Below, in pieces: positions 3,788 to 23,590 of a stretch of 24,021 nt of DNA. Source of the stretch: Lentisphaerae bacterium RIFOXYA12_64_32 (GTDB taxonomy: Bacteria; Verrucomicrobiota; Lentisphaeria; Oligosphaerales; YB12-FULL-65-16). Position 1 is the first letter of the stretch, and each line of letters opens with the position of its first letter. The notes beneath the pieces were generated by a model. It made no database searches and was not told where the DNA came from. It worked only from the letters and a program-made list of their open reading frames with translations. Location of the stretch: positions 1 through 24,021 of the forward strand of contig MHBL01000202.1 of NCBI GenBank assembly GCA_001803235.1, in the 5' to 3' direction. Made by a program: the position numbers and the translations under genes.

Positions 3788-4088
3788 ATGCGGACGCTGT
3801 CGTTCTGGGCCAAGGAGTTGGCTGATCCGGCCTGCCGTGCGCGGTGGGAGCGTTTGGCGCGCGGTGCGGAGTCGGCAATGGGTGACACTCGGGTGGAGCT
3901 GCTCGCGGCCAGTGCGCCGACGGCTGCCGGCGTGGCGCGCAGCGCCTGCCCGGACGTAATGCTGGTTCATGCCGGCGAACTGGATGGCCTGGTGAACGCC
4001 GGGTTGCTCCTGCCGCTCGGGCCGAATGATCCCATGTCCTGGTTCAATCCGGACGACGACTTTCGCGTCGCGCGGAACGCTGCAGTCC
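3788..4088 (+). pseudogene. Truncated remnant of a family-1 extracellular solute-binding protein (sugar ABC SBP paralog). It has no signal peptide and ends at a repeat element.
   Basis: The translation MRTLSFWAKE...DVMLVHAGELDGLVNAGLLLPLGP aligns with TLTFWHIM...DVFFTWGGGGLAELAAADRVVDLTP in the intact SBP at 16313..17614. Only about the first 100-130 residues are present and the upstream part is not signal-like. The reading frame then runs straight into REP-like copy A. Confidence 0.45.
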
Positions 4089-4162
4089 CGGCCGAGGGCC
4101 CTCGGGCCGGGACGGCCCCGAGGCGCTCTACTGCGGTCCCGGAGGTCCCGCGCCACTGTCGT
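4089..4162 (+). repeat. REP/MITE-like interspersed element, copy A (partial: 3' half only)
   Basis: CCGGCCGAGG..CTCGGGCCGGGACGGCCCCGAG..CTGCGGTCCCGGAGGTCCCGCGCCACTGTCGT matches the 3' half of the copy at 13803..13950 and the reverse complement of 17629..17743. It contains the conserved internal hairpin CTCGGGCC-GGGAC-GGCCCCGAG. Confidence 0.6.
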
Positions 4163-7276: not shown

Positions 7277-8770
7277 TCACGGGTCCAGGACCTGCATGTC
7301 GTCCAGGGTCAGGCTGTCGACCAGTTCGAGCACGGGCAGGCACAGGTCAGCCACTGGCGAGGCGGTCGCCAGTGCGCTCTTGGTCAGGGCGATGTGCGTC
7401 GCGTCGAACCGGCCCAGCGCCGGGTCGACCGGCAGCCACACGTCGGGTGCCACGAGCAGTTCGGCCCAGACGTGAAACACGAACGCGCCGGTCTCGTGTC
7501 GTTCCCCGAAGGTGACGTTGCTCATGTACGCCAGGCCGACCACGAGCCGCGACGGAATGCCCAGGGCGCGGGCCAGCGCGGCGACCAGCACGCTGTGCTC
7601 GGAGCAGTCGCCGCGCAGGGCGCGGGCCGTCTCCAGGGCGCTGGCAAACCCCATGTCGAGGGTCTTGGAGACAATCTTGCCGCGCACGTAGCTCTCGAGC
7701 CGCCGCGCCAGCGCGACCGAGTTGCGCTCCTCGCCCGCGGCCTCACGCGCCATGTCCTGGAGCAAAGGCTGGTCTGCCTCGAGGAACGGTGTGGGCCGGA
7801 GGTAATCGGCCAGGCCGGCGCCGTTCCGGAAGGGGACGGCGTAGCCCGCGACCCACGAGTCGGGCGGCGGCGTACTCACCGTCACGTCGGCCTGGCCCGC
7901 CGCAATAGCCGTCACCTGCTGCAGGGCATCGGCACAGAGCCGCGCCTCCGCGCCCGGGGTGCAGCGGAGGCGGTAGCGGGCTCGCCGGACGGCCCGCGGC
8001 GCCGGAATGCGCGCCGGCGCGGCAACCATCGCGGACGTCATCAACTCGACAGCGGTAGACGGAAGCAACGCCTCTTCCTTGGAGCAGCGCAAGATGCGCA
8101 CCGGCCCCAGCAGCGGGATCTCGATGCGGGTGAGCAGTGCCCGGCCCTGTTCGTCGAGCCACTGCAGGTCCGGGTGCAGCGGGCGGATTTCCGTCGTCTG
8201 CGTCAGACGCTGCAAGGAGCGGGTTTCCGCGGCCAGTTCGACGTCCTCGACGGAACCGAATTCGATCCGAGTGACCACACCGCGGGCGAGCTCGGGCGCA
8301 AACACCAGTTCGGAAAAGCTGTGACCGGCTCCGCGAGCGCGCTCGGCCACAATGCGTCGCAGCATGGCTCGGGGGCCGCGCGCCGCGGCCGGGAGTGGAA
8401 CTTCACTATCGTAGCCGGCACTGTGCAGACGCAGCCGCTCGCCGTCTGCCGTGCCTTCCACCGCCGCCGACGTCTTGAGTTGGCCGCCCGAGAACGAATC
8501 GAGCCGATACTGGTAATGCCGAACCAGCCCGGCAGTGTCTTCACCGACCCGAACGTGTTCGTGGAACTCAACCAACTCGCCGCCGCGCTTGAAGCCCAAC
8601 ACGGTCTCCCACTCGCTGGCAAAGTGCCCGTCCGGGCCAGGCACCGTGTCGAAGCGTTGGTGCATGTGCCCAATCTTCTCGGTCCCGAACCAGATCGATC
8701 CCCAGAATTCCGATAACGGTTCCATATCCATCTCTGCGGCAGATATTAACCGACTGCACAGGAGCAGCAT
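7277..8770 (-). CDS. Transglutaminase-like superfamily protein (Cys-His-Asp core) with a large N-terminal domain of unknown function
   Basis: The C-terminal region has GDCSEHSVLVAALARALGIPSRLVVG, then FVFHVWAE and PVDP, matching the transglutaminase-like Cys/His/Asp core. The ORF is open to a GTG at 8950, but the first 60 codons are Arg/Cys-rich junk. I chose the ATG giving MLLLCSRLISAAEMDMEP (about 8770), which has a hydrophobic N-terminus. ATGs at about 8728 and 8722 are alternatives. No strong Shine-Dalgarno precedes any of them. Confidence 0.7.
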   Translation of the reverse strand: MLLLCSRLISAAEMDMEPLSEFWGSIWFGTEKIGHMHQRFDTVPGPDGHFASEWETVLGFKRGGELVEFHEHVRVGEDTAGLVRHYQYRLDSFSGGQLKTSAAVEGTADGERLRLHSAGYDSEVPLPAAARGPRAMLRRIVAERARGAGHSFSELVFAPELARGVVTRIEFGSVEDVELAAETRSLQRLTQTTEIRPLHPDLQWLDEQGRALLTRIEIPLLGPVRILRCSKEEALLPSTAVELMTSAMVAAPARIPAPRAVRRARYRLRCTPGAEARLCADALQQVTAIAAGQADVTVSTPPPDSWVAGYAVPFRNGAGLADYLRPTPFLEADQPLLQDMAREAAGEERNSVALARRLESYVRGKIVSKTLDMGFASALETARALRGDCSEHSVLVAALARALGIPSRLVVGLAYMSNVTFGERHETGAFVFHVWAELLVAPDVWLPVDPALGRFDATHIALTKSALATASPVADLCLPVLELVDSLTLDDMQVLDP

Positions 8771-8981
8771 TATGACGGCAGCGCTTCGTCGCGAGAGCCT
8801 GCCGACGCCCGAGTCGTTCCGTTGTGCTCTTCCTGTCTGCACGAGTGCTGCCGCGGTGTGTGCCATGTGCGGACTCCGCACCCACCGGCCACGCCTACAG
8901 CACGGAGGCCTTCTGTTCCGCTGAGGTTTAAGGTTACATAGGCGCGGCACAATTACAAGACCGGCGGGGTCGGCGAGGGTA

Positions 8982-9222
8982 ATGCGTCAGCACGTCCCGG
9001 CCGGTGGACCGGCCGATCATAGGCTGACGTTACTCGCACCGGTTCGCGCCGCCGCGGGTCTTGCGCCCGCGGGGCGACGATTGGGAAAAAGAGAGGGGCG
9101 TCCGTCGCCTCCCCCCTTCCCAATCGTCGCCCCACGGGCGCAAGACCCGCGGCGGCGCGGACGGACGCGAGTAACATCCACACATGACCGGGCCGTCTGC
9201 GGCCCGGGCACGCTGACGCAAT
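8982..9222 (+). repeat. Long palindromic element E1: a 104-bp outer arm, a ~33-bp loop that is itself a hairpin, and a diverged inner arm
   Basis: Outer arm 8982..9085 (ATGCGTCAGCACGTCCCGGCCGGTGGACCGGCCGATCATAGGCTGACGTTACTCGC...GGGGCGACGATTGGG) pairs with inner arm 9119..~9222 (CCCAATCGTCGCCCCACGGGCGCAAGACCCGCGGCGGCG...GCGAGTAAC). The core 39 bp pair with 1 mismatch; the distal parts are weaker. ORFs translated across it on both strands give mirror-image peptides ([13 protein letters not shown]), so they are artefacts. Confidence 0.75.
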
Positions 9223-9245
9223 ACTGGCACGGGGCGGTGCATCTT

Positions 9246-9275
9246 TTGGCATTCCGCGCGCGTTCCGTGTATCTT
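9246..9275 (+). promoter_or_regulatory. Candidate sigma70-like promoter TTGGCA-N18-TATCTT, about 45 nt upstream of the DUF1559 gene
   Basis: Consensus match by eye only. It lies between element E1 and the AGGAG Shine-Dalgarno of the gene at 9321. Confidence 0.2.
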
Positions 9276-9320
9276 ACGAACAGACACCGGATTTGTCAAC
9301 CCCCCGTGCCAGGAGACGAT

Positions 9321-10040
9321 ATGATGCGCACTTCGCACGATCGCCGATTCACCCTGATCGAACTTCTCGTCGTCATTGCCATCATCGCGATCCTGGCGTC
9401 GCTGCTGTTGCCGGCGCTGGCCATGGCCAAGGAGAAGGCGCGCAAGGAGGTGTGCGCCGGGAACATCAAGCAGGTAACGAGCGCCAGCTTCATGTATATC
9501 GACGACAATGACGGCTGGTGGCTCGAAAGCCCGCCGGTGCGCGCTGACGATCCCGCCGTTGGGTGGCGGCCGGATCTGGCGCGCGTCGCGCCGCAGGCCC
9601 TGATCCTGCCGTACCTCGGGAACTTCGAGGTCTGGGTCTGCCCGTCCCGGATCGACCGGCGGCCATGGACTTCGGGCGGGCACCCGATGTGGGGTGCTGA
9701 CGCGTACCCGGACGAGTTTGCCGGCAAGTGCCTGTCGTACGGGCCCGGCATGAAGGGGCCCAGCAACACGGGCGTCCCCACGGGCTACAAGGTCGACCCC
9801 GAACTGCGGCGGCGAAAACACGCTTCGAACGAGGAACTGATGTGGGGCGATATGCCGTACCCTAACTTCCTGCTCCCTGACCACTGCCTGGCCTACCCGA
9901 AGCTGCTGCATCCGAATGCCTGCAACTGGGCCACGATGCAGTCGGATTCGTTCACGGCCCACATCAACGGCAGCAACGTGAGTTACTTCGATGGCCACTG
10001 CTACTTCATGAACGCAGCGCAGATCATCGCTAAGTACTGA
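9321..10040 (+). CDS. DUF1559 family protein with a prepilin-type N-terminal cleavage/methylation domain and a C-terminal H-X9-DG motif
   Basis: ATG at 9321 has an AGGAG Shine-Dalgarno 5 nt upstream. The N-terminus [33 protein letters not shown] is a classic type-IV-pilin-like leader. The C-terminus [12 protein letters not shown] is an exact H-X9-DG. The 113 codons upstream in the same ORF (from 8982) lie inside palindromic element E1 and are rejected. Confidence 0.85.
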
Positions 10041-10189
10041 ACGGGCACGCAGCAAACCGGCGGCGCTGAGGCAGTACTGTGATGCGTCAGTCGCGGGTGC
10101 GCGTTTGTCCGAGCCGCGCGTGTCAGCAAGCGGCCTCCCAGAGACCGCTCCCTCATCCCGCCCGTCGGGCGGGACGGCTCGGCTGGATG

Positions 10190-10418
10190 CCTGTTGCGGT
10201 ACGTCCTGCACCCGTGACTCCCATGTTACTCGCGCGCCATCCTGCGCCGCCGCCCGGCTGGTCCGGGCGGGGCGACGATTGGGGGAAGAGGGGCGGGCGT
10301 CCGCGCCCTCTTCCCCCAATCGTCGCCCCGCGGGCGCAAGACCCGCGGCGGCGCGAACCGGTGCGAGTAACGTCAACCTATGATCGGCCGGTCCACCGGC
10401 CGGGACGTGCTGACGCAT
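10190..10418 (-). repeat. Long palindromic element E2, inverted relative to E1
   Basis: Outer arm 10315..10418 is the reverse complement of E1 outer arm 8982..9085 with 1 mismatch in 104 (GTCAACC versus GTCAGCC). The inner arm at about 10223..10290 (ATGTTACTCGCGCGCC...GGGGCGACGATTGGGGG) is diverged. The loop GGGGAAGAGGGGCGGGCGTCCGCGCCCTCTTCCCCC is itself a hairpin. Confidence 0.75.
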
Positions 10419-10441
10419 CATGCAGTACTTCCGCCCTGCAC

Positions 10442-10470
10442 TTGCGCTTGCCGGGGGAACAGGATACAAT
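10442..10470 (+). promoter_or_regulatory. Candidate promoter TTGCGC-N17-TACAAT, about 95 nt upstream of the 10566 gene
   Basis: TACAAT at 10465..10470 matches the -10 consensus well. The -35 is weak. Match by eye only. Confidence 0.25.
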
Positions 10471-10565
10471 AGAACCAAGCGGAAAAGGGGTCGGTCGTCT
10501 CGGGAAGGCCGGCATGTGCGTCCCTGTCCGTGTGTCCAGGCCGACGGCACGGGAGGTGCCAGTAT

Positions 10566-11213
10566 ATGGCCCACAACCCCGTATTGGACCGCGTGGCGGA
10601 CAAGATGAAGCAGGCGCTGCGCGACCAGGCCAAGGCGTCTGTCGAGGCGCTGGCGGGCAAAGCCAAGCAGGCGGTGGCCGAAGCGGTTCCGGCCCCGGCT
10701 CAGCCGTCTCCGTCGCGGTTCGCCGCCGGACCGGCTTTTCGCAGCACCATTCCCTGCTCCGCCGCGGCAAAGGACCGGGCGCTGGTGATTCTGTGCAGCA
10801 GCGGCACGTTTCAGCGGCAGTGCCACGAGTTCCTGACCGCCGGGCTGCGTCTCGATGACTACGATTTGGTGGCCGTGCCGGGCGGCGTGCAGTGGCTGGC
10901 ATTGCCGGACATTCTGCCGAAGCACCACAAGGTCGCGCGCTGGATGACCGAGTACCTGCTGCGCAAGCACAGCGTGCGCCGCGTCATCTGTATTGCACAC
11001 CAGAACTGCTCGGCGTACGAGGACCAGAGCACGCTCGGTACCCTGGCGCACATGGTCACGGGCAAGAGCACGTTCGAGCACCAGCTCGAGCAGTTGCGGC
11101 ATGTGGGCAACGACCTGACGTCCCTGTTCGGCGTCGGAGTCGAGCTGTACTATGCCGCGGTGGAGAACGGGGACGTCGTGTTCCATTCCGTGCCAACGGA
11201 AAAGGGAGTGTAG
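10566..11213 (+). CDS. Hypothetical cytoplasmic protein with an N-terminal amphipathic helix, a Pro-rich linker and a ~150-aa domain that resembles a beta-carbonic-anhydrase zinc site but lacks the catalytic Asp/Arg dyad
   Basis: ATG at 10566 has GGGAGGTG 9 nt upstream; the ORF's upstream ATG at 10530 has no Shine-Dalgarno. LVILCSSGTF...DYDLVAVPGG...RRVICIAHQNCSAY aligns, from memory, with beta-CA blocks LFISCSDSRL...DLFVIRNAGN...IVICGHSNCGAM. Cys, His-x-x-Cys and Asn are retained, while the CxDxR Asp and Arg are replaced by Ser and Thr. Confidence 0.65.
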   Translation: MAHNPVLDRVADKMKQALRDQAKASVEALAGKAKQAVAEAVPAPAQPSPSRFAAGPAFRSTIPCSAAAKDRALVILCSSGTFQRQCHEFLTAGLRLDDYDLVAVPGGVQWLALPDILPKHHKVARWMTEYLLRKHSVRRVICIAHQNCSAYEDQSTLGTLAHMVTGKSTFEHQLEQLRHVGNDLTSLFGVGVELYYAAVENGDVVFHSVPTEKGV

Positions 11214-13696: not shown

Positions 13697-13802
13697 TCGG
13701 GACCGCGGCGTTGGGTCGCGCTTCCCCCCCCGGCGGCCGAGAGCTGTCTCAGGCGAAGTTGCTGTTTCCGCCCGCCGGCACTGGGACGCGACTGATCGCG
13801 CA

Positions 13803-13950
13803 GTGGCTCGGCGCGTCCCGCGCCGAAGCGGGGTGCGCCGGCCGGCTCTGTCCGGCGAAGCTGCTCGCGCGAAGACGGATCTCCGGCCGAGGTGCTCGGG
13901 CCGGGACGGCCCCGAGCACCCTGCTGCGGTCCCGGAGGTCCCGCGCCACT
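13803..13950 (+). repeat. REP/MITE-like interspersed element, copy B (full length, 148 bp)
   Basis: GTGGCTCGGCGCGTCCCGCGCCGAAGCGGGGTGC ... CCGGCCGAGGTGCTCGGGCCGGGACGGCCCCGAGCACCCTGCTGCGGTCCCGGAGGTCCCGCGCCACT. Both conserved end-blocks are shared with the inverted copy at 17629..17743. The 3' half is shared with 4089..4162. It lies about 105 nt downstream of the flotillin stop. Confidence 0.7.
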
Positions 13951-14346: not shown

Positions 14347-14487
14347 GGGACGGGTGTCGGGTGTCGAGGGGGGGAGCGTCCTTGAACACTGAACACTCTC
14401 CGAGCGTGGTCTTCGTACCATCCACACTGCCCTTTCGCGGCAGGTCCAGCCTGATAGGCGTGCCCCTCGACACCCGACACTCGTCCC
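14347..14487. repeat. 25-bp inverted repeat pair (1 mismatch; core 18 bp perfect GTGTCGGGTGTCGAGGGG) flanking 91 bp; MITE-like or structured-RNA-like element
   Basis: Left arm 14347..14371, right arm 14463..14487. There is no obvious target-site duplication. The interior contains GAACACTGAACAC. Confidence 0.5.
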
Positions 14488-17614: not shown

Positions 17615-17628
17615 CCGGGCGGGACGAC

Positions 17629-17743
17629 AGTGGCGCGGGACCTCTGGGACCGCGGCAGGGTGCGCGGGGCCGTCCCGGCCCGAGGTCCTCGGCCGGGGAC
17701 CGGCCCGAGCACCCCGCTTCGGCGCAGGGACGCGCCGAGCCAC
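17629..17743 (-). repeat. REP/MITE-like interspersed element, copy C (inverted orientation, 115 bp)
   Basis: The reverse complement reads GTGGCTCGGCGCGTCCCTGCGCCGAAGCGGGGTGC...CCGGCCGAGGACCTCGGGCCGGGACGGCCCCGCGCACCCTGCCGCGGTCCCAGAGGTCCCGCGCCACTGTCGT. It starts 15 nt after the SBP stop codon. Confidence 0.7.
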
Positions 17744-17819
17744 CGCACGCTCGGTCCGGAAGGCAAGGGGTAGGCACTGGCATTTGTGAGCCTTTTATGA
17801 GGCAAAGTCGGAGATGTAA

Positions 17820-23281: not shown

Positions 23282-23590
23282 GTGCGATCCTTTGGCGGCG
23301 TCCCGGCCAGGAGTCTGGCCGCAGACACAACAAGAAGCGCCGCAGAGCTCGAACCTGGTCGATGGGGAGTCACCCGGTGGCGGTGCCAGGGTGCAACGCC
23401 CGGCATCGCCCTCGACGTCGGTTCTGTAGGCTGCGTTTCGTGGTTGTCCGGTTTTCCGGATGATGCCGGAAACGAAGCAGTTCTAGTTAACTTAGTGCCG
23501 GGAGGGAGGAAGGCAAGCTCCAGGTTGTGCGCAACGTAGTGCGCCAGCGCCCGGGGGGCGCTGACGCATTACGCCCCGCCGTACTGACGA

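Follow-up and report, generated by a model that had tools for sequence, protein, structure and literature searches.

How a single small gene comes to lie between two long and nearly mirror-image palindromes is the question raised by a 24,021-nt stretch of DNA from Lentisphaerae bacterium RIFOXYA12_64_32 (contig MHBL01000202.1, positions 1 to 24,021; hereafter the window). In this window a DUF1559-like gene, which encodes a prepilin-type protein, is flanked by two palindromic elements, E1 and E2, and a sequence-only reading compared their outer arms to the terminal repeats of a mobilisable cassette that could have served as a vehicle for the expansion of DUF1559 genes. We find that both elements belong to a multi-copy family of MITEs (transposable elements of the miniature inverted-repeat type), many of whose termini lie at a fixed distance from predicted promoters. 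E1 and E2 are thus probably separate insertions of one promoter-spaced MITE family, with the bracket around the gene a by-product rather than a cassette.

The description of the palindromes themselves was borne out by both repeat search and folding. The outer arms at 8982-9085 and 10315-10418, each 104 nt long and spaced 1229 nt apart, are 99% complementary (103/104), and each element contains an imperfect internal palindrome, with arms at 8996-9096 and 9108-9208 in E1 (79% complementary) and at 10244-10292 and 10306-10354 in E2 (84% complementary). The predicted folds were highly stable for E1 (8975-9230, -192.9 kcal/mol, z = -14.8) and for E2 (10180-10425, -166 kcal/mol, z = -8.7); no shuffled sequence equalled either value, and the central loop forms a hairpin of its own in both. 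The limits first proposed held approximately for E1 (8979-9224), while E2 proved to span 10079-10421 and not 10190-10418. The inner arm of E2, which had been taken for a diverged one, is a separate module (B); in E1 the older arm is about 80% identical to the young one.

In a metagenome scan, one arm motif matched dozens of loci in four assemblies (Ga0156402, Ga0156531, Ga0208961 and Ga0208968) of the same population, and these loci, referred to here by L numbers, overlap one another and the window at about 100% identity. Removal of redundancy left 26 loci (284 kb, GC 0.64-0.69) as the sample for family counts. At least 26 distinct loci carry copies of the family, which are 80-99% identical to E1 and E2; the same motif, run against a genome collection of representatives to which the source genome does not belong, gave only chance single matches in unrelated taxa. 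A canonical copy is laid out as A arm, central hairpin, B arm and C module. The A arm reads GTAATGCGTCAGC ... GGGGCGACGATTGGG, where GGGGCGACGATTGGG is a core common to the arms; the central hairpin is short and rich in G and A; the B arm has only this inner core in common with the A arm; and the C module, about 110-130 nt long and with hairpins of its own, closes with a second terminus, CTGACGCATTAC. In short forms, of about 157 nt, only the C-type part is present, with the same termini. Copy size ranges from 157 to 350 nt, and copies in many loci are bounded by the 12-nt termini GTAATGCGTCAG and CTGACGCATTAC as terminal inverted repeats.

Among 13 two-ended copies, four are flanked by perfect 8/8 target duplications, each with a chance probability of about 1.5e-5: E2 in the window (GCAGTACT), the copies in L090 (CTGTGCAA) and L073 (GAACCCGG), and a short form in L034 (TCCCTGGC). 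Two further copies have abutting 7-bp duplications, and the remaining seven have none. No Pfam transposase was found in or beside the copies of the window or of L085, and the 4.5 kb between the element pieces of L085 encode only DUF4153, PIN and AraC proteins. The family is therefore a mosaic MITE, being non-coding and multi-copy, with terminal inverted repeats and target duplications of 7-8 bp, and its palindromes are transposon-derived, as the sequence-only reading had supposed.

The copies also hold a regular position relative to predicted promoters. Of 47 genuine termini (32 A-type and 15 C-type), 24 have a sigma-70-like motif (TTGACA-N16-18-TATAAT type, score of at least 9 bits) that starts outward of the element at 19 nt (12 termini), 20 nt (10) or 21 nt (2), and each other offset from 0 to 69 holds either one motif or none. 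Given the background of 3.8e-4 per position in these loci, about 0.054 motifs would be expected at the three offsets (Poisson p ~5e-55), and under a stricter consensus rule 15 motifs stood at offsets 19-21 against 4 across the other 67. Most motifs are followed within 10-90 nt by an outward-pointing open reading frame with high G+C at third codon positions (GC3). The genes on the promoter side are diverse, and include those for pyruvate:ferredoxin oxidoreductase (PFOR), a Ser/Thr kinase, RmuC, an O-methyltransferase, glycogen synthase, a xylose-isomerase-like protein, a major facilitator superfamily (MFS) protein and a flavin adenine dinucleotide (FAD) oxidoreductase. Because the target duplications directly adjoin the termini, the promoters are outside the element; the position of the staggered cut is 12-20 nt upstream of the -35 hexamer, which would be at roughly -55 to -48 from the transcription start. 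The presence of young copies such as E2 at the canonical spacing favours target choice over later selection or the birth of promoters, and the positional regularity probably reflects a choice made by the transposition machinery.

In the mechanism that we propose, a transposase supplied in trans would move the family, and insertion would be position-specific, leaving a terminus 19-21 nt from the -35 hexamer of a sigma-70-type promoter. Three promoters are predicted around the DUF1559-like gene (Table 1), each 20-21 nt from an element terminus, and insertion at these would produce the bracket. E2 would be a recent, complete copy upstream of the operon promoter, and the outer arms would be near-identical because both are A arms that face a promoter, those of the two youngest insertions, and point to neighbouring genes. 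The promoter called for the DUF1559-like gene was also returned by a separate promoter-scan program. We give roughly even chances to the more specific proposition that the MITE or its transposase reads promoters, through either promoter-bound RNA polymerase or a DNA distortion at the upstream edge, with integration at about -55 to -48 from the transcription start by an 8-bp staggered cut.

Table 1. Coordinates of the palindromic elements, their parts, the adjoining genes and the predicted promoters in the window.
Feature	Position	Strand	Remarks
E1	8979..9224		246 nt, A-type arms on both sides, termini GTAATGCGTCAG / CTGACGCAATAC
E1 young-subfamily A arm	8979..9085	+	faces the promoter of the transglutaminase-like gene
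E1 old A' arm	9119..9224	-	~80% identity to the young arm; directed at the promoter of the DUF1559-like gene
E2	10079..10421		complete canonical copy, 343 nt, termini GTGATGCGTCAG / CTGACGCATCAT
E2 C module	10079-10189		~110-nt left module bearing the second terminus
E2 B arm	10190-10282		identical to the B arm of the L061 copy
E2 central hairpin	10283-10314		
E2 A arm	10315-10421		faces the promoter of the downstream operon
E2 target duplication, left copy	10071..10078		GCAGTACT, 8 bp
E2 target duplication, right copy	10422..10429		GCAGTACT, 8 bp
Transglutaminase-like gene	7277-8866	-	left neighbour of E1
DUF1559-like gene	9321-10040	+	239 aa, prepilin-type N-terminus, H-X9-DG C-terminus, NCBI tag A3K19_00895
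Conserved operon: 215-aa protein / NfeD-like / SPFH (Band_7)	start 10566	+	right neighbour of E2
Promoter of transglutaminase-like gene	8931..8958	-	predicted; TTGTAA-16-TAACCT, 20 nt outward of E1 left terminus
Promoter of DUF1559-like gene	9246..9275	+	predicted; TTGGCA-18-TATCTT, 21 nt outward of E1 right terminus
Promoter of 215-aa/NfeD-like/SPFH operon	10442..10470	+	predicted; TTGCGC-17-TACAAT, 20 nt outward of E2 A-arm terminus
MITE remnant, two A-type termini fused	23536..23572		37 nt, GTAGTGCGCCAGCGCCCGGGGGGCGCTGACGCATTAC; promoter-like motifs 19 nt outward of both ends

The two elements differ in what their ends record. E2 has a target duplication of its own and therefore inserted alone; it begins 38 nt past the stop codon of the DUF1559-like gene, and its centre and A arm match the L062 copy at 100% identity for about 155 nt. 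The junction expected at the corresponding empty site is GGCGCTGAGGCAGTACTTCCGCCCTGCAC. Just to the left of the duplication, positions 10062-10077 read GGCGCTGAGGCAGTAC, which agrees in 13 of 15 bases with the canonical A-type end GCGCTGACGCATTAC, and the target of E2 may have been the end of an older remnant. The centre of E2 (10275-10331) is missing from three assemblies (L023, L024 and L027), with the junction in a GGGCG microhomology, and is kept in three other assemblies and in the window; the L061 copy (L061:58-343) is also without its centre. The absence of the E2 centre is either a real deletion polymorphism at the centre of the palindrome or an assembler artefact.

E1, by comparison, lies between flanks (CGGCGAGG and TGGCACGG) that match at only 5 of 8 positions and show no target duplication. 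Its identity with the E2 arm ends at the common core GGGGCGACGATTGGG, and the near-identical outer arm is that of a young subfamily found at other loci as well, with further arms of 97-99% identity in L053/L074, L061 and L043. As E1 combines a young arm up to the core with an older centre and opposite arm and has no matching duplication, it is best read as a fusion of an old and a young insertion. An old copy would have faced the promoter of the DUF1559-like gene, a young copy would later have landed toward the transglutaminase promoter, and a deletion between the GGGGCGACGATTGGG core repeats of these back-to-back copies would have left the young arm joined to the old centre and old arm. Directly after the right terminus of E1, positions 9225-9242 (TGGCACGGGGCGGTGCA) resemble a sigma-54 -24/-12 element (TGGCAC-N5-TTGCA), a likeness that may be due to chance.

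A related locus bears on the ages of these insertions. L098, a 993-nt contig, encodes an ortholog that is 85% identical in amino acids to the DUF1559-like protein of the window, and it begins with an 11/12 terminus match about 92 nt upstream of the ATG, at the place corresponding to the E1 A' arm; E2 is absent from the 163 nt downstream of the ortholog's stop. This suggests that the inner arm of E1 is old and that E2 is lineage-specific. In distant relatives (53% identity) synteny upstream of the downstream operon is not conserved and is uninformative about the empty site, and a search for close orthologs of the transglutaminase-like gene found none, the best being 58% identical.

The DUF1559-like gene between the elements is a resident and not cargo. 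Its protein has both a prepilin cleavage/methylation motif at the N-terminus and H-X9-DG near the C-terminus; its Pfam scores are weak and below threshold (DUF1559, 22.3 bits against a cutoff of 23.3; N_methyl, 19.7 against 21.2), and its close homologs carry PF07963 and PF07596. Proteins of the window match exactly the NCBI entries A3K19_00890, A3K19_00895 and A3K19_00900 of the metagenome-assembled genome 'Lentisphaerae bacterium RIFOXYB12_FULL_65_16', so labelled, and the host organism belongs to the Planctomycetes-Verrucomicrobia-Chlamydiae (PVC) group without being a planctomycete. An association of the family with such genes does exceed expectation: small prepilin-like genes make up 5 of the 22 promoter-side genes and a sixth lies beside a degenerate copy, compared with two others among the roughly 130-230 remaining genes of the sample. 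The Fisher p-value lies between 8e-4 and 6e-5, calculated over a range of gene totals because our crude GC3-based gene caller undercounted. This enrichment looks real but modest, the sample being small and conditioned on the presence of an element; it may reflect monocistronic genes with good promoters of their own, and it is no sign of mobilisation. The five other small prepilin-like genes beside family copies share 30-43% identity with each other and with the window gene, as against 80-99% among the elements, which means that the elements arrived long after the genes had diverged and rules out co-duplication of gene and element.

These observations weigh heavily against the view that E1 and E2 are the ends of a composite, MITE-flanked unit with the DUF1559 gene as its cargo, whose movement would drive the expansion of the gene family. 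The near-identity and inverted orientation of the outer arms are what such a unit would show, MITE-flanked mobilisation has precedent in Acinetobacter class 1 integrons with identical MITEs (reviewed in PMC10969869), and the enrichment beside DUF1559-like genes points the same way. However, E2 has its own perfect 8-bp duplication, and the sequences at the outer ends of the unit, CGGCGAGG to the left of E1 and GCAGTACT to the right of E2, do not match; the 1.44-kb unit and its exact protein occur at a single locus; and the identity of the arms is a property of the subfamily rather than of this pair. Genes of other kinds are bracketed as well (in L034 an MFS gene, in L065 a pair of convergent genes), the five other DUF1559-like genes have a copy on their upstream side only, and their divergence set against that of the elements is not that of genes carried along. 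We consider a cassette of this kind very improbable, and with it the proposal that the elements carried the DUF1559 expansion. Gene conversion, which the sequence-only reading had also raised, concerns E1 more narrowly: E1 would be a single old insertion whose left arm was overwritten from E2, 1.2 kb away and inverted, with no second insertion. Nearby inverted repeats convert readily, and the identical tract (8982-9085) ends exactly at the core common to all arms, as a conversion tract would. Against E2 as the donor, the E1 arm with its terminus GTAATGCG is closer to the L062 copy (106/107, terminus included) than to E2 (104/107, terminus included, with A-arm terminus ATGATGCG); in addition, the left terminus of E1 stands at the canonical 20 nt from an outward promoter, as expected of a separate insertion and not of conversion, and the E1 flanks lack a matching duplication. 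Conversion by itself is thus unlikely, although recombination or conversion with a young copy forms part of our own explanation of E1.

The positional regularity could also have arisen by selection, with insertions occurring anywhere between genes and being kept only at a fixed promoter distance where they are useful. Such a regulatory module might offer an activator site centred near -61, an insulator against upstream read-through, or a hairpin that stabilises the RNA of the upstream gene or terminates its transcription. We hold this selective account to be quite improbable. The fixed position would coincide with the upstream edge of the RNA polymerase footprint and with that of a class I activator, the hairpins are highly stable, enrichment is seen for one gene class, and insulation had already been offered as an alternative in the sequence-only reading. 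Yet very young copies are found at the exact distance (E2 combines its fully shared segment of about 155 nt with an intact duplication), the downstream genes are functionally unrelated, a spike at 19-20 nt with no tail of other distances would be hard to produce by selection alone, and no intrinsic terminator signature (GC-rich stem with U-tract) is present in 8700-10700. A further candidate is the repetitive extragenic palindrome (REP) or bacterial interspersed mosaic element (BIME), in which palindromes are moved by a REP-associated tyrosine transposase (RAYT) of IS200/IS605-like type, as in REPINs (REP doublets that form hairpins). The repeats are likewise intergenic, GC-rich, mosaic, palindromic and multi-copy, but inverted repeats with 7-8-bp duplications are not made by RAYT/IS200-type transposition, and the units measure 157-350 nt against 20-40 nt. 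Rfam and tRNA scans of the window gave no match, nor did any REP-like family; no RAYT gene was seen in the sampled loci, in a search that was not exhaustive. We find this origin scarcely credible.

Separate insertion of a promoter-spaced MITE family, our preferred explanation, has several points against it. No transposase with matching termini turned up, and mobility in trans is for that reason an inference. The lack of target duplications in 7 of the 13 two-ended copies means that rearrangement between copies is common and that their histories are complicated, and for E1 the same data fit both the fusion model and an alternative in which a young copy converted an old arm. The promoters are consensus predictions, two of the three in the window fail the stricter filter of the promoter program, and about half of the termini have no good motif at the canonical distance. 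Short-read metagenome assemblies break or mis-join at family repeats, all loci were assigned to one genome on the basis of 100% overlaps and GC content, and the L098 comparison comes from one 993-nt contig with 27 nt of element-like sequence.

Among described elements, the family most resembles in general form the bacterial MITEs derived from DDE insertion sequences, such as MITEPsy1, MITEAba12 and QMITE2: it is likewise non-coding, 150-350 nt long and bounded by inverted repeats and short duplications, with strong predicted hairpins, many intergenic copies and subfamilies of different age (features reviewed in PMC10969869 and PMC3189936). It differs in being modular, with A, B and C in several combinations and a C-only short form, and in its fixed 19-21-nt spacing to -35 hexamers. 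The parent insertion sequence (IS) may be IS66-like or IS256-like. IS66 elements have terminal inverted repeats that start GTAAGCG and generate 8-bp direct repeats (PMC11946415). The termini GTAATGCGTCAG of the window family similarly begin GTAA and its duplications measure 7-8 bp, while the terminus GTAATGCG has one inserted T relative to GTAAGCG. Direct repeats of 8 bp are also made by IS256, ISL3, IS6 and IS1595. For the IS256-family element ISPsy17 the inverted repeat is GAGACTGTCAG... and the duplications are probably 8 nt long (PMC3189936). Promoter-directed targeting by IS66 or IS256 is not described in the papers that were searchable, nor did we find there a description of a fixed promoter distance for any bacterial IS element or MITE; the section on insertion-site preferences of a 2024 review likewise lists no MITE with a fixed promoter-spacing rule.

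The Acinetobacter integrons with identical MITEs resemble the locus in having a gene between two copies of one MITE family whose outer sequences are near-identical. The window differs in that one copy has its own duplication, the composite has none and the unit is single-copy, and in that its two copies are not of the same age or module make-up. In Correia elements the duplication is TA, and outward promoters and an integration host factor (IHF) site belong to the element itself. These elements (also CREE or NEMIS) are abundant palindromic MITEs of Neisseria that lie mostly just upstream of genes and can affect transcription (PMC10969869). The window family is alike in its upstream position and unlike in having an 8-bp duplication and, beyond it, the promoters, which are outside the element. 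Yeast Ty3 integrates at RNA polymerase III start sites (PMC6673722), and so shares a fixed position relative to a transcription initiation complex. The analogy is functional only, as Ty3 is a retrotransposon that attends to another polymerase in another domain of life.

The identical segments of the family also leave their mark on the assemblies. Many contigs simply end inside E1 or E2, and in L041, L065, L088 and L092 the two flanks of one copy are joined to different partners in different assemblies. L025 departs from the window after position 10155, and there (L025:1096-2660, sample ERZ27254765) the DUF1559-like gene is joined to a SurA-like gene by a break inside the E2 C module. In L107, from the same sample (L107:2100-2360), the partner of the 215-aa gene is the 3' end of a pyrroloquinoline quinone (PQQ)-repeat gene, which is the left flank of the L062 copy; this flank is connected with the right half of E2 via the identical segment of about 155 nt. 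These joins are either chimeric assemblies or recombinants across identical repeat segments. L025 was considered as a second context of the DUF1559-like gene and set aside, the joins being induced by the repeats or at best possible recombinants. Across the family repeats, contigs of this population cannot be relied on.

Several other repeats were seen in the window and the sampled loci. The 37-nt mini-palindrome at 23536-23572 may be a remnant of internal deletion or excision, and, as beside the E2 target duplication, termini abut termini in L031 (7748/7762) and L072 (about 1845-1860), which suggests repeated insertion at the same sites. A third repeated module (..ATAGACCCC..GTGGCAGGTGAACGGGTTCA..) adjoins truncated MITE copies at L031:7883-7930, L034:5900-5945, L043:3370-3400 and L069:4350-4400, indicating nested insertions among several repeat families. 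A second, unrelated family of GC-rich palindromes occurs at 4085-4162, 13790-13950 and 17624-17756 (e.g. GTCCCGGCCGAGG..CCTCGGGCCGGGAC...GGTCCCGGAGGTCCCGCGCCACT), with copies also in L031 and L097. It occupies the classical REP position, at gene 3' ends or within operons, with sites between convergent genes, following the SPFH gene and, in an ATP-binding cassette (ABC) transporter, between the genes for the solute-binding protein and the permease. Finally, a 25-nt inverted repeat (14347-14371 and 14463-14487, 96% complementary, GGGACGGGTGTCGGGTGTCGAGGGG) is located within the 1 kb of intergenic DNA that precedes the diaminopimelate (DAP) epimerase gene, and a similar motif, GGGTCGGGTGTCGAGTGTAGGGG, lies downstream of a prepilin-like gene in L065; this may be yet another repeat family.

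For the DUF1559 family, these results remove the cassette as a mechanism of expansion: the genes are old, divergent residents, and the palindromes came later and separately. If the proposed promoter-spaced insertion is correct, it would explain the accumulation of copies around small monocistronic genes, the DUF1559 paralogs among them, and would give a simple account of the repeat-bracketed genes, contig breaks and chimeric joins in the assemblies of this population. A transposon that inserts at a set distance upstream of promoters would represent a kind of target selection new to bacteria and a bacterial counterpart of Ty3-type promoter-directed integration, amounting to a 'safe-haven' strategy that spares genes and promoters alike. 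It would also suggest a transposase that reads the transcription machinery or the shape of promoter DNA, and the positions of the elements would then mark promoters in an uncultured organism for which there are no transcript data.

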